This document shows, piece after piece, positions 4,590-49,780 of a stretch of 64,000 bases of DNA. Source of the DNA: Octopus vulgaris (Eukaryota); NCBI GenBank assembly GCA_951406725.2, contig OX597827.1, forward strand, positions 38,254,001-38,318,000. Reading direction: 5' to 3'. The notes beneath the pieces were generated by a model. It was not told the origin of the DNA, did not search any database, and worked only from the letters and a program-made list of their open reading frames with translations. The position numbers were made by a program, and so were the translations under genes. The number at the start of each line of letters is the position of its first letter. Positions within the stretch are counted from its first letter, which is position 1.

Positions 4590-4805
4590 TAGTTAATCCA
4601 AACAAGAAAGCACAAAAAACACAACAACGCGAGGACGTGGAACAAATATAGTATTATTGGACGCTCAGGAAAGAAGGAAAGAAGGATGGTTTAACATTTT
4701 GAGAGGAGCTCTTTGTTGGAAACATAGGAGAAGGAAAGATCCAGAGAAGGGAAGACAGAGGAAAAAAAATCGCCAACGGTACACATGAGGTCACATTTTG
4801 AAAAA
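4590..4805 (-). mobile_element. Penelope-like terminal repeat fragment (family H2) with decayed hammerhead
   Basis: Same sequence family as 40910-41105 and 47571-47665; minus strand 4689-4723 reads GTTT CCAACAA A GAGC TCC TCTC AAAA TGT T AAAC; TA-rich flanks. Confidence 0.6.
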
Positions 4806-4818
4806 TATATATCATCGT

Positions 4819-5250
4819 GGAGGCACAATGGCCCAGTAGTTAGGGCAGTGGACTCGCGGTCATAGGATCGTGGTTTCAATTCCCAGACCGGGCATTGTGA
4901 GTGTTTATTGAGCAAAAACACTTAAAGCTCCACGAGTCTCTGGGTGGTGGTGAACCCTGCTGTACTCTTTCACCACAACTTTCTGTCACACTTTCTTCCT
5001 GTTTCTGTTAAGGGTACACGTGTCTGTGAAATGCTCAGCCACTTGCACGTTAATAAATGAGCTGCGATGTCACTAGTGTCAAGCTGTATCGGCCTTTGCC
5101 TTTCCCTTGGATAACATTGGTGGCGTGGAGAGGGGAGGCTGGTATGCATGGCCGACTGCTGGTCTTCCAAAATCAACCTTGCCCAGACTTGTGCCTCGGA
5201 GGGTAACTTTCTAGGTGCAATCCCATGGTCATTCATGACCGAAGGGGGTC
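4819..5250 (+). mobile_element. tRNA-derived SINE (Meta/V-domain-like family)
   Basis: A-box tggcccagtagtt, B-box ggtttcaattccc, then gtgtttattgagcaaaaacactt; body shared with 31232-31517 and 63880-64000. Confidence 0.85.
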
Positions 5251-5264
5251 ACAATATATATCAT

Positions 5265-44767: not shown

Positions 44768-45135
44768 CTAGCAGTATCGCCCGGCGTTGCTCGGGTTTGT
44801 AAGGGAAATAACTATAAAGCACTTTTAGAGAGTTATAGCCAAAAAATGGGGAAAAAATGATGGTAATTTTTTTTGAGAGTTAAAAAGGTCGAGTTGCATC
44901 CCCTAGACAGTCTGTGGTTTGTGTTTCTGATTCTCGACCCCATGTCGAATTTATCGATTTTTTTCAGAACTGAGGGAACTTTTCAAAATTTTCGCTGCGT
45001 TAGTTTTGAATTATGACATTGGGCTATGTGTGTGTCAAGTTTCATCAGAATCGGTTGAAAGCCGTGGTCAGGGTGAGGGTACAACCTAACAGACACACAG
45101 ACACGCAGACAGACAAACTGCCGTTTATATATATA
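44768..45135 (-). mobile_element. Non-autonomous Helitron
   Basis: First ~45 bp (ctagcagtatcgcccggcgttgctcgggtttgtaagggaaataa) identical to the 7827 copy; the other end merges into (TA)n. Confidence 0.82.
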
Positions 45136-45229
45136 TATATATATATATATATATATATATATATATATATATATATATACATACATATATAACATATAAT
45201 ATATATATATACATATATAATATGTAGGC

Positions 45230-48200
45230 ACAGAAGGTTCTGGGTTCAGTCACACTGCATGACACCATAGGCAAGTGTCTTCTACTGTTGCCTTCGGCCA
45301 ACCAAAGCCTTGTGGGTGGATTTTATAGACGGAAATTGGAAGAAGCCTATCGTGTGTATATATGTGTGTGTATGTATGTATGTGTGTGTGTATCTTTGTC
45401 TCTATGTTTGCTCTCCCCCCATCACCGCTTGTCAACCAGTATTGGTGTGTTTATGTTCCTGTAACTTAGCAGTTCAGCAATAGAAATCAATAGTAAAGTA
45501 CTAAACTTAAAATAAAAAAAAAGAGTTCTGGTGGTTAATTTGTTCAACTAGGATGCAGTGCTCCAGCATGACAACAGTCAAATGATTGAAACAAGTAAAA
45601 GAAAAATAAAAGAATATATATATATATATATATATATATGGTGGGACTCTCCTGTTGAAGACGATGTACGAGAATTCAGCCTTTGCCAAATGACCCACAC
45701 AAATGATTTGTTTATTGTGATTAAATATTTGTGCCACACATTTGTCTCTCTCTCCGTTAAATCAACATTGTCTGAACAGGTGCACGGTGTACCCATGCAT
45801 CAGGTGTCGAAGTGATAGCAGAGCAACATGTGATGGAAGTGTTTTGCTCAAGAAGACAATGCCTCTTCCCACCCTGGTCTTGGAATTGAAAGCATGATCT
45901 TGCAATTGTGACTACAACAACTAGGTCATGTGACCTCGGCTGTGTGGTATGTAGCTTGCTTATGAACCGTTTGGTTCCGGGTTCAGTCTCATGGCGTGGC
46001 ACCCTGGGCAAGTGTCTTCTACTATAGCCTCGGGCTGACCAAAGCCTTGTGAGTGGATTTGGTAGACCGAAACTGAAAGAAGTCCGTCATATATATGTAT
46101 GTGTATATGTATGTGTGTGTGTATGTGTATTTATATGTTTGTGTGTCTGTGTTTGTCCTCCCAACATCGCTTGACAACTGATATTGGTGTGTTTATGTCC
46201 CTATAACTTAGCAGTTCAGCAAAAGCGACCGATAGAATAAGTACTAGGCTTACAAAGAATAAGTCCTGGGATCGATTTGCTCAACTAAAGGCGGTACTCC
46301 AGCATGGCCACAGTCAAATAACTGAAACACGTAAAAGGGTAAAAGAAAGTAAAGAGTATAATTATGTCAGTGAACTGGCAGAATTGTTTCTATGGCAGCA
46401 AAATGCTTAGTGGGATTTCATCAGTTTTTATGTTCTGAGTCAAATTCCATGAGGTTGACTTTGCCTTTCATCCTTTCAGGGTTGATAAAATAAGTACCAG
46501 TTGAACAGTTAGGTCAATTTAATTGACTTAGCCAACCCCCTTCATATTATACCCAGGACTGAATGCCCAAACCTGTTATGAAATGTATTCCAGCCATGAC
46601 CATCCTGTCATTTTATATATATCAGCAATACTGTGCTTATGAAAAAAAACAGGAGTGGCTATAGGTGCAGGCATGGCTGTGTGGTAAGAAGCTTGCTTCC
46701 CAACCACATGGTTCTGGGTTCAGTCCTACTGCATGGCACCTTGGGCAAGCATCTTCTACTATAGCCTTGGGCCAACCAAAGCCTTGTGAGTGGATTTGGT
46801 AGACAGAATTTGAAAGAAGCCTATCATTTATATATATATATATATATATATATGTTTGTGTGTGTCTGTGTTTGCCTCCCCCCTATTGTTTGACAACCGA
46901 TGTTTGTGTGTTTACATTCCCATAACTTAGCAGTTTGGCAAAAGAGACTAACAGAATAAGAATGAGGCTTACAATGAATAAGTCCTGGAATCGATTTATT
47001 CGACTATAGGTGGTGCTCCAGCGTGGCCACAGTCTAATGACTGAAATAAGTTAAAGAATAAACTGTAGTGTGATTTGAATGACATTTAACTGCTATTTCT
47101 AGCATACTGAATGTTCACATAGTTGCTCCCTCAGCAGCTCAATCGCTGATAAGTATTGGTTATTCAGTTGCAGAATCTAATCAAGTAAGGTGTTGGGGCC
47201 CCCCAGACAGGAATGATGACACTGGATCAAAAGGAGTTGTGCTAGGTTATAGTTCTGACCTGACTTTACCCAACTCATTCTTCCAGGGAATAACATATGT
47301 TAAAATATCCTGATGGTGATGATGACGGTGGTAGTGGTGATGGTGATGATGATATAGTAAGGATTTATATAAAAGTGCAAACACACATACACACACACAA
47401 ACACACAATTTGTGATGGGGTTATATGGTTGTACTAAACAAACAAAAGAAAGGAAGTGAAAATAACCTCCTCCCCTTCCAATTTTGTCCAAAAATAACAT
47501 AAACTATCTCACTCCTGTATACATACATGTGTATGTTTATATATATATATATATATATATATATATATAAAGTTAATCCAAACAAGAAAACAAATAGACA
47601 ACAACGCAAGGATGTGGAACAAATAAAGTATTATTGGACGCTCAGGAAAGAAGGGAAGAAAGAGGATATATATATATATATATATATATATATATATAGG
47701 AGCAGGAGTGGTTGTGTGGTAAGAAGCTTGCTTCCCAACCATAGCAAGTGTCATCTGCTATAGCCTCAGAGTGTCCAAACCCTTTGGAAGTAGCTTTGGT
47801 AGACAGAAACTGAATGAAGCCCATCGTTTATATATATATATGTATTTGTGTGTCTGTGTTTGTCTCCCCACCATCACTTGATAACTGATGTTTCTGTGTT
47901 TACATTCCTATAACATAGCAGTTCAGCAAAAGAGACTGATAGAATAAGCACTAGGCTTACAAAGAATAGGCCCATTGTTCGACCAACGGTGGAGTTCCAG
48001 CATGGCCACAGTCAAATGATTGAAACAAGTAAAAGAATATATACATATATATGTATATATAGGTGCTAGAATAGCTGTATTCTAAAAAGTTTGTTTCCCA
48101 ACTATGTGATTCAGGCCAACCAAATTCTTTGTAAATGGATTTGGTAGAAGAAACTGAAAGAAGCCTGTCATATATATATATATATATATATATATATATA

Positions 48201-49780
48201 TATATATATATACAAGTATGTTATTAATAATAAAATTAATAATATTAGTGGCTATTCAAAGCATGAACCGTGCAGGCAAGTTAAAAAAAATATGATGATA
48301 GTGGAAGAGTACCAGCTTTGCTAGAGATAGAATTCAAATGACCTCGGAAACCACAGAGAGCTCACTTTAGGAACAAGCATGGTGAAAATAGATATACATA
48401 CATGTGTGTGTGTCTTTGTGTTTGTCCTTCGCACCACCTGACAAGCAGTGTTGGTGTGTTTATGTCTCTGTAATTTAGTGGTTGAGCATAAGATACCAGG
48501 TTTTAAAAAAAAAATGTAAAAAAAAATAAGTACTGGGGTCAATTCATTCCACTAAAACTCTTCAAAGCAGTGCCCCAACATGGCCACAGTCCAATGGCTA
48601 AAACAAGTAAAAGATAAAAGACATATTATATATATATATTTTATCCTTTGAAACGTAGAGTAGATGAAACCTTAGCGACTGAAGAAGGGGTTTTTTCTTT
48701 GTGTTAATTGTCCTGTACTCCATTTTTTTGTTGTTTTTAAAAAAATGTCCAGTTCCTTTGGTTTGTGTCTATGTTTTCGTTTCTCTTTGTGTTCGACGTC
48801 CCTTTGGTGTCCTGTACTCATATATGCGTGTATATGTACATGTAGAGGTAGGTACGTACATATATGTTTATATATATGCATATGTTTTATTTCATTTATT
48901 AATATATATATATATATATATATATATATATATATATATAATACTAGGGAGTAAATTTCTAAATATAAATTAAAAGTTTTTGATTTAAATATTTTAATTT
49001 AAAATTTTATATTTTATATATTTTGTATATTATATTAATTATATTTATTTTTATGTTTTGGTTTATGTTTTTCATTGTTTGATTTGCCTAATAGTGGTTT
49101 TATCTCTAATTTAATTTATATATATATATATATATATATATATATATATATATATATATATTCTTTTATTCTTTTACTTGTTTCAGTCATCTGACTGCAG
49201 CCATGCTGGAGCATTGCCTTGAAGGGTCTTAGTTGAATAAATTAACCCTCAAGATTTAATTTTTTTCAGCCTAATACTTTTTCTATCATTCTGTTTTGCT
49301 GAACCACTTAGTTGCAGGGACATAAACACACCAACATCAGTTGTTAAGAAGCGGTAATGGACACACACACACATAGATATATACATGTCATTGTAAACTT
49401 AACTGCACATAACTATTGGTGTGGCTGTGTGGTGAGAAGTTTGCTTGCCAGCCACATGGTTCCAGGTTCAGTCCCATTGCATGTAATTTTGAGCAAGTGT
49501 CTTGTTCTATAGCCTCAAGCCAATAAAAGCCTTGTGAATAGATTTGGTCAGTGGAAACTAAAAGAAGCCTGTCATATGTGTGTTTGTCTTCCCCCCCCCA
49601 CAGCTTGACAAGTGGTATTGGTTTGTTTACATCCCCATAACTTAGTGCTTCAGCAAAAGAGTCTGATAGAATAAGGCTTTAAAAAAAAGTACAGTGGTCA
49701 TTTCACTCAGCTAAAATTCTTCAAAGCATTGCCTCAGCATGGCTTCAGCCTAATAACTGAAACAAGTTAAAGATAAAAGA
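45230..49780 (+). mobile_element. Dense run of CORE-like SINEs (45230-45610, 45935-46360, 46665-47060, 47698-48040, 48060-48620, 49420-49780 on +; 49165-49370 on -)
   Basis: Repeated family head, core and tail motifs. Confidence 0.85.

Follow-up and report, generated by a model that had tools for sequence, protein, structure and literature searches.

The hammerhead motifs in this 64,000-nucleotide stretch of the Octopus vulgaris genome (the window) are very probably the ribozyme-bearing 3' ends, or pieces of the pseudo-LTRs, of at least four families of Penelope-like retrotransposons (PLEs), left as dead, 5'-truncated insertions. Two families, F1 and F3, appear to be of the Hydra-clade type, a third (F2) has a core pair inverted to G3-C8 that we attribute to its master element, and the fourth (F4) is decayed. 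Hammerhead-like folds are present, yet the bulk of what we describe is known biology, namely 5'-truncated PLE 3' ends within (TA)n. Hammerhead-bearing Hydra PLEs located in (TA)n, one octopus family among them, have already been described (PMC8557442), and apart from the G3-C8 swap and a tail hairpin the remainder is routine repeat annotation.

An initial annotation had reported at least four unrelated, Penelope-derived hammerhead families with unusual core diversity. All five of its motifs are in the sequence, with cores on the plus strand at 6703 (CUGAAGA) and 8525 (GUGAACA) and on the minus strand at 11830 (UCGACGA), 41027 (CUGACGA) and 4719 (CCAACAA); the positions it gave mark motif edges, not cores. 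Its reading of the motifs as minimal type I hammerheads with a palindromic stem III is borne out, as are the PLE origin and the targeting of (TA)n, but the families are not all mutually unrelated, the motifs at 6703 and 11830 both being of Hydra type. The diversity of cores was overstated. Judged by their letters, CUGAAGA and CUGACGA are canonical, because N7 is free, and CCAACAA is read as decay; the diversity therefore reduces to two cases, GUGAACA and UCGACGA, and only G3-C8 appears as a family state.

The swapped core pair of F2

The window copy of F2 has the anatomy of a PLE insertion, with inverted arms, a 64-nt tail and both ends in TA. The forward arm holds the hammerhead (8518 to 8568, plus strand) and a 3' part (8569 to 8646) that ends in TA; the inverted arm (8324 to 8507, minus strand) starts at core position 6 and carries the tail (8324 to 8387), which is absent from the other arm. 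In the hammerhead, stem I (8518 to 8524 with 8562 to 8568) encloses the core G3 U4 G5 A6 A7 C8 A9 (8525 to 8531), an extra G, stem II (8533 to 8537 with 8547 to 8551), GAAA (8552 to 8555) and the palindrome AAUAUU, with a predicted cut after 8561. The features of a minimal PLE hammerhead are found here: U4, G5, A6 and A9, GAAA, UH, G10.1-C11.1, the extra nucleotide, the palindromic stem III and stems I and II. An inverted, 5'-truncated copy with a one-ended tail is likewise a PLE feature, although the tail is longer than the 30 to 40 nt described for PLE tails and resembles the tails of about 65 nt in Hydra loci from outside the window. A search for the tail hairpin gave no match in F2, which lacks the combination of Hydra-type stem III and hairpin by which we defined the Hydra type. 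When an F2 dimer was folded without constraint, stem II paired between molecules and the hammerhead dimer was not formed.

C3-G8 is a central pair of the active hammerhead core, and F2 departs from the canonical CUGANGA by inverting it to G3-C8, so that pairing between positions 3 and 8 is retained. C8 is carried by both arms, and a 28-contig loose-end consensus runs through stem I into G3-U4-G5. Among 10,279 contigs on F2 from a single run (X6, which has a different organism code and in which depths are not copy numbers), no other letter reached 5% anywhere at 8525 to 8531 or 8552 to 8555; the positions that differ belong to loop II (8541 and 8543), the tail and the CpG C11.1 (about 7%). The uniform core in this one run therefore argues that G3-C8 is the state of the family and not decay. 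Two of three raw-read runs contained no F2 reads and the third contained 39 reads of a single rearranged copy that misses the core, a near-absence that is unexplained if those runs come from the window's species. The invariance of the core falls short of evidence for selection because CpG sites outside it also mostly vary below 5% and no compensatory stem change occurs in F2; the two arms differ in the stem by only U-A/U.G, and no double change reached 5% across copies.

In the literature searched, which left out some work on PLE hammerhead variants, G3-C8 cores occur in engineered uses only. The same swap was engineered into the PLE hammerhead of Anolis Poseidon as a C3G/G8C double mutant, which partly restored cleavage (Frangieh et al. 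2024, PMC11167929); the swap in F2, by contrast, is natural. A natural swap to U3-A8 is known from the Cercyon elements of Schistosoma (PMC4209133). The hammerheads described here resemble the minimal type I class known from metazoan PLEs (Cervera and de la Pena 2014, PMC4209133) in having an extra nucleotide after A9, G10.1-C11.1 and a palindromic stem III, and in occurring both as numerous solo copies and as closely spaced pairs on opposite strands. F2 differs from that class in its G3-C8, where the others have C3-G8 or U3-A8, and in its extra nucleotide, a G against H in the consensus. Exact F2 patterns were found in no metagenome, prokaryote-genome or viral contigs. We also considered whether F2 might be the end of a Naiad, elements without canonical hammerheads, but found no support for this: the Craig supplement contains no F2 words, and octopus Naiad 3' ends differ by eye.

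Since the swap keeps a pair at 3-8 and leaves all other core letters intact, slow cleavage seems the most likely behavior, and we predict, with somewhat better than even confidence, that F2 retains slow self-cleavage. The strongest competing explanation, a serious one that we nevertheless rate below even, is that G3-C8 is a fixed, catalytically dead relic of a master that drifted via two transversions and spread anyway, its fold at most binding protein or pausing the reverse transcriptase (RT). In vitro, insertion did not require hammerhead cleavage, and the double mutant has only partial activity (PMC11167929); minimal PLE hammerheads cleave poorly, and F2 has no internal covariation, all of which a dead relic would explain. 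That two transversions should exactly restore the 3-8 pair and leave the rest of the core, G10.1-C11.1 and the palindrome intact would be unlikely without selection in the lineage, however, and natural U3-A8 covariation is known in PLEs.

Hydra-type ends in F1 and F3

F1 is classed from its sequence as a Hydra-clade PLE. The GIY-YIG relic that had been noted in the window is indeed present (5601 to 5844, plus strand): translations and tblastx mark it as the C-terminal part of a Hydra-clade endonuclease, 5'-truncated and broken into two frames (5601 to 5708 and about 5719 to 5844). In a database of 120 outside loci it matched the ORF ends of L054, L001, L024 and L045, which contain the same endonuclease end, with tblastx E values of 8e-11 to 1e-4, and it also agrees by eye with the Hydra alignment. 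A search among 1.84 billion proteins returned P0005 at E 3.7e-4, which is identical to the first piece of the relic at 22 of 35 positions. Two word-index protein searches with the relic pieces gave no homologue, and Pfam gave no match on three pieces and only a sub-threshold GIY-YIG match on P0005. The C-terminal motifs LCxxE and N..CPH are present, and the break falls on the first Cys of CxxC. The copy is truncated inside the endonuclease, so that it does not extend to the RT motifs (RWK and DKT), the CxCX5C linker or the place where CCHH would be absent.

The relic is followed by a presumed 3' UTR (5845 to 6692), T/G-rich with degenerate internal repeats, and by the F1 hammerhead (6693 to 6763, plus strand), which has the canonical core at 6703, GAAA at 6741, a stem III as in Penelope-3_HM and a predicted cut after 6753. 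About 850 nt separate the relic from the core at 6703, which lies downstream of it on the same strand; this spacing exceeds the roughly 100 nt between ORF and hammerhead in L001 and L024; because the UTR is long, endonuclease and hammerhead are linked by order, strand and position only. A Hydra-type tail hairpin (xCUC-stem-loop-stem-YY-GAGx) occupies 6803 to 6825, and F1 ends at about 6866 in TA. A second copy (8205 to 8286, plus strand) consists of the tail only, with its hairpin at 8225 to 8247, and also terminates in TA.

F3 (11694 to 11847, minus strand) is a 5'-truncated end within a TA tract, with its hammerhead at 11845 to 11786, the core UCGACGA at 11830 and a tail hairpin at 11757 to 11736. 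As a 154-nt fragment it is provisionally assigned to the Hydra clade, by hammerhead and tail hairpin only. The hammerhead is supported by its long stem I (15 to 16 bp, against a shuffle mean of 0.2 matches with a stem I of at least 10) and by homology, not by its core, which departs from the Hydra type at positions 3 and 4. A second F3 copy (40045 to 40148, plus strand) begins downstream of the hammerhead and offers no core for comparison. We doubt that UCGACGA is a second family-level core variant, with a U3.G8 wobble and C4. Such a variant would fit with the retention of both CpGs and the long stem I in this copy, and U4C is present in a viroid, but the copy is single, two transitions from CUGACGA would explain it, and UCGACGA occurs in none of 135 outside relatives, which are from other animals and of which 131 are canonical.

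The stem III and cut-site junction of F1 and F3 agree with published Hydra hammerheads (File S2 of PMC8557442), and the Hydra-type hammerhead pattern gave 135 matches in the 120 outside loci and none in viral contigs. The Hydra-clade PLEs of that study (Hydra-1_Obim, Hydra-2_Amil and Penelope-3_HM) likewise have a C-terminal GIY-YIG with CxxC and CxH, a hammerhead that follows the ORF and has a palindromic stem III of 9 nt, insertion in (TA)n, which F1 and F3 both show, inverted 5'-truncated copies and a tail. F1 and F3 are nevertheless families other than Hydra-1_Obim, from which their hammerhead and 3' UTR differ by eye; words from F2, F3 and F4 had no real match in the supplement, and the Hydra cores in File S2 are all canonical, unlike those of F2 and F3. 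Among the 94 outside matches with enough flank, an inverted arm lies at most 150 nt upstream in 28 loci, a short end being paired with a long one in most of them. The tail hairpin has three matches in the window, each of them in a tail of F1 or F3, whereas shuffles gave 0.06 apiece; it also occurs, covarying, in 30 of 116 outside tails, and the passages of PMC8557442 consulted do not mention it.

F4 and the origin of the short fragments

F4 has three copies, all on the minus strand. Copy b (40912 to 41105) is a minimal hammerhead with CUGACGA at 41027 (fold z -0.78), copy a (4595 to 4796) is a decayed one with CCAACAA at 4719 (fold z -0.09), and copy c (47571 to 47665), with TA on either side, begins a few bases past the predicted cut site. 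Both copies that hold the site have AAAA in place of GAAA with its G12, plausibly from CpG decay. A further TA-flanked inverted insertion with unequal arms and PLE-like anatomy, in which no hammerhead was recognised, lies at 39354 to 39655.

The F1 hammerhead lies behind a GIY-YIG relic, to which its position links it, but no RT or GIY-YIG ORF is linked to F2, F3 or F4. The motifs had been interpreted in general as non-autonomous mini-elements, a reading not supported in view of the endonuclease relic on one copy, the upstream extension of F2 and the behavior of Hydra elements. In a narrower form, which we consider unlikely, F2 and perhaps F4 would be discrete elements amplifying as short units with PLE proteins in trans. 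No ORF was seen for either family, two of the three F4 copies start almost together, some 80 nt ahead of the core, and several F2 joints restart within 6 to 12 nt of stem I. Yet F2 extends further upstream than the window copy, with 161 contigs whose loose ends have a median of 53 nt and 27 whose median is 92 nt (30 nt of these ends are shown); its inverted junctions lie at many different points, and no sharp start or end site was found among its copies in reads or contigs. Copies of the ORF-bearing Hydra family likewise often begin just ahead of stem I, and its outside loci yield the same short inverted fragments. The common F4 start, being TA/TG-like, may mark a junction formed at microhomology.

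Proposed mechanism

As truncated PLE ends, the insertions could have arisen as follows. The GIY-YIG endonuclease would cut (TA)n, as insertion bias has established for the clade, and the RT would start synthesis from one of two internal sites of the RNA, leaving either a short end or a long "tail" end. Two internal start sites have been demonstrated in vitro for a lizard PLE, and the 64-nt difference between the F2 arms can be set beside that scheme. Copying would often halt early, in or near the hammerhead, and two opposed copies at one site would give the inverted pairs whose anatomy we observe. In the parent transcript the hammerhead is predicted to cut as a dimer via its palindromic stem III, as is established for PLE hammerheads, the F2 master presumably having had the inverted core pair.

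We tentatively suggest, while rating it below an even chance, that F2 is a highly amplified and undescribed animal PLE family with a working natural G3-C8 ribozyme, invisible to CUGANGA descriptors, and that the Hydra tail hairpin is an RNA signal setting the two RT start sites. Natural fixation of such an inversion across a multi-copy family would directly support, on evolutionary grounds, the view that selection acts on the pair and not on its letters, and standard descriptors would be overlooking whole hammerhead families. In that case core swaps might recur among PLE ribozymes as a slower setting, and some elements reported without a hammerhead could be explained by them. The spread of a family whose ribozyme is probably slowed also offers a handle on what PLE hammerheads are for, and the tail hairpin is a candidate RT-recognition element of the Hydra clade.

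Chance controls and (TA)n adjacency

With descriptors drawn up after the candidates were already known, the strict form (at most one core deviation, stem I of at least 7 and a palindromic stem III) matched two sites in the window (6703 and 8525) and none in 40 local dinucleotide shuffles, and the form with at most one deviation and a stem I of at least 5 gave three matches against a shuffle mean of 0.35 (maximum 2). The relaxed form (two deviations, stem I of at least 6) gave three matches against a mean of 3.1, a count of three being reached in 29 of the 60 shuffles; because this is the chance level, such matches alone are no evidence. The comparison with shuffled sequence that had been proposed for the motifs separates 6703 and 8525 from chance under the strict descriptor but gives no separation under the relaxed one. 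The monomers fold only weakly, with z of -1.6 to -2.6 in the three best cases. A scan of all six hammerhead permutations found 6703 and, at chance level, one AT-rich site, and 48640 to 48690 fell short; its thresholds left out the shortest stems III, so that 8525 was not expected. The Rfam matches listed (150 of 271) include no hammerhead family and are microsatellite-driven and of miRNA type.

The motifs are very unlikely to be non-LTR retrozymes, as had also been suggested. Retrozymes too have PLE-related type I hammerheads in animal repeats and stem from PLE pseudo-LTRs (preprint 10.64898/2026.07.22.740005), but they are tandem units, each with a hammerhead, that produce circular RNAs; no tandem array of F1 to F4 occurs among the 106 tandem-repeat rows of the window, where copies are single or inverted, and truncated. 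Least probable of all are chance matches in AT-rich repeat DNA, which would agree with the result of the relaxed descriptor and with F4 folds no better than shuffles but homology to Hydra loci, PLE anatomy and the strict-descriptor controls refute them in the case of F1 and F3 and in large part in that of F2, F4 being the exception. The adjacency to TA repeats holds as well: (TA)4+ lies within 10 nt of 10 of the 13 ends of the four families (ends chosen by eye), the corresponding figures being 3.8% for non-TA positions and 19 of 182 for the ends of other repeats.

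A swapped core pair in the F2 family

F2, one of the four hammerhead-bearing repeat families of the window (F1-F4), lies at 8324-8646 and consists of two arms in opposite orientation, with TA repeats at both outer ends and a 64-nt tail on one arm. Inverted arms, outer TA and a single tail are the standard arrangement of Penelope-like elements (PLEs), and F2 was placed by this anatomy. The hammerhead of the forward arm is complete in all features save that the usual core pair, C3-G8, is replaced by G3-C8.

Four of 24 public sequencing runs were compared with 8326-8640 at 80% likeness and a 5% listing floor. 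In run X6, whose organism code differs from that of the best-matching run and which contains half the words of 5500-8700, 10,279 contigs map to this interval, their summed depth not being a copy number. No alternative letter reaches 5% at 8525-8531 or 8552-8555 in these contigs, and variation is found in loop II and at tail positions. Loose ends (161, 27 and 28 contigs) carry a single upstream sequence entering stem I, the 28-contig end extending through G3-U4-G5, and joints reveal further inverted F2 copies with junctions at many points. Because a canonical subfamily would pass the 80% filter, G3-C8 is the founder state of the multi-copy F2 family in this one run. Counted against a founder state are runs X22 and X24, with no reads on 8326-8640, and run X23, with 39 reads of one rearranged F2 variant missing the core. 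About 3% of run X23 yielded this variant at a depth of 10-19; two runs of the same label gave none.

Natural covariation of the 3-8 pair is described as U3-A8, both in prokaryotic-type collections (PMC3088659) and in Schistosoma PLEs (PMC4209133), and PMC11167929 gives G3-C8 as an engineered variant. No natural G3-C8 core was found in the literature searched; Lunse et al. 2017, outside that search, may contain one. The novelty here is the family-level G3-C8 core, with the tail hairpin (discussed below) secondary; family-level evidence comes from one run-mapping analysis and from loci outside the window.

Anatomy, TA flanks, the Hydra identity of F1 and, in one run, the G3-C8 family state were observed. 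The window copies may have arisen by endonuclease-primed reverse transcription that terminated early, and the F2 ribozyme would have cut within the parent RNA. Judged from sequence, the balance tips slightly towards a G3-C8 ribozyme that keeps its self-cleavage activity. Minimal PLE hammerheads cleave slowly and dimer-dependently, according to published accounts, and the inverted F2 copy here is unable to supply a same-strand dimer by itself.

Hammerhead motifs and TA tracts

The window is animal DNA rich in repeats, with abundant TA microsatellites and SINE-like repeats, a content that we take to be cephalopod-like. Of the initial annotation's type I hammerhead folds, a descriptor scan recovered those at +6703 (CUGAAGA), +8525 (GUGAACA), minus 11830 (UCGACGA) and minus 41027 (CUGACGA); the last belongs to a decayed family, with AAAA in place of GAAA. 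A strict descriptor (no more than one deviation in the core, a stem I of at least 7 and a palindromic stem III) gave two matches against none in 40 shuffles. The relaxed search that had been proposed, allowing two core deviations, performed at chance level within the window (three matches, shuffle mean 3.1) and therefore carries no evidential weight by itself. Adjacency to TA tracts held up: (TA)4 or longer lies within 10 nt of 10 of the 13 F1-F4 ends (chosen by eye), whereas among other repeats 19 of 182 ends are this close. The observation is partly confirmed and its interpretation partly supported; most of the material is known Hydra/PLE debris.

F1 and the Hydra clade

F1 (5601-6866, plus strand) comprises an endonuclease relic, a hammerhead and a tail; a second copy (8205-8286) is tail only. 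The relic (5601-5844, plus strand) translates, in two frames, into the C terminus of a GIY-YIG endonuclease. It contains the CxxC/CxH pattern of the Hydra clade, a group of PLEs with a (TA)n bias, and by eye resembles Hydra-1_Obim in the supplement alignment (Craig et al., PMC8557442). A phmmer search returned four proteins, two of which were examined: P0005 is a Hydra-like endonuclease end, and P0004 was rejected as an ankyrin-repeat-like chance match. The F1 hammerhead core is canonical, and its stem III equals that listed for Penelope-3_HM in the same source. F1 is a new family within a known clade.

A Hydra-type pattern with positions 3, 4, 7 and 8 free was found in at least 120 loci of metagenome contigs (estimated total about 160), with 135 matches listed, 23 of them distinct. 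Most listed matches are near the published Hydra-2_aMil motif. CUGANGA occurs in 131 of the 135, the other four being single decayed copies, and neither G3-C8 nor U3-C4 occurs among them. Among the at least 120 loci listed, four also contain the relic's endonuclease end. In 28, an arm in inverted orientation lies immediately upstream; as a rule one arm stops about 30 nt past the ribozyme, and its partner runs on for about 65 nt more. On this evidence, short fragments of this kind, inverted and with a ribozyme, are normal debris of an ORF-bearing family and give no sign of non-autonomy.

F3 and F4

F3 (11694-11847, minus strand) carries a Hydra-type tail hairpin and a hammerhead whose stem I core, stem III and cut-site junction are likewise Hydra-type; a second copy (40045-40148) is without ribozyme. 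Its core, UCGACGA, is two adjacent transitions away from CUGACGA, and decay would be the simpler reading.

F4 has three copies, including the motif originally placed at 4689, a further-decayed relative of the 41027 copy with its core at minus 4719. Both copies holding the site have AAAA for GAAA, so G12 is lost, and both fold no better than shuffles. The layout fits the published minimal hammerhead consensus (PMC4209133). We class F4 as a decayed minimal hammerhead, probably of PLE origin.

The tail hairpin

A hairpin of the form xCUC-stem-loop-stem-YY-GAGx is common to the long ends; it lies at 6803-6825, 8225-8247 and 11757-11736 (minus strand) and in tails of the outside loci. A descriptor composed after the hairpin had been seen gave three matches in the window, all in F1/F3 tails, against 0.06 per shuffle. 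Among the outside loci listed, 30 of 116 tails with enough flank contain it; many copies stop before it. Between families, the changes at the outer pair and in the inner stem are compensatory, and Hydra-2_Ajap has a similar hairpin by eye. Because six tails gave a poor plain alignment, it is the descriptor that carries the claim. Two internal reverse transcriptase (RT) start sites delimit the PLE tail in PMC11167929, and the hairpin, lying between the two 3' ends, is placed like the stem-loop region where RT starts on the Anolis element described there. By this analogy, we infer a candidate RT start or recognition signal.

Other repeats

By eye, the 3' ends of Naiad_Obim and Naiad_Ovul (PMC8557442 supplement) contain helices that could serve as stems I and III of a hammerhead, and the partner of stem II would lie upstream and not after CUGAUGA; such an arrangement would correspond to S-G-C, a non-circular order described by Eckert et al. 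2023.

TA tracts longer than 1 kb lie at 17680-18970 and 23852-24918. At 39354-39655 is an inverted, TA-flanked insertion with arms unequal as in F2 and no recognised hammerhead. The TA-flanked segment 48640-48900 has a GAAA half preceding a CUGAAGA half, with complementary stem II strands, and failed a six-permutation hammerhead scan. A further TA-flanked family occurs at 40500-40710 and 48945-49160, the former copy starting with an apparent hammerhead 3' half (GAAA, 6-nt palindrome, UA). A 419-aa RT fragment with a PHD-like finger (55244-56503, plus strand), with a related piece at 2786-3243, was rejected as a PLE and is of the non-LTR type (Pfam RVT_1, E 2e-15). Repeats at 7826-8220, 27790-28180 and 44767-45125, presumably Helitron-like, open with the same short segment, which has a GC-rich hairpin.
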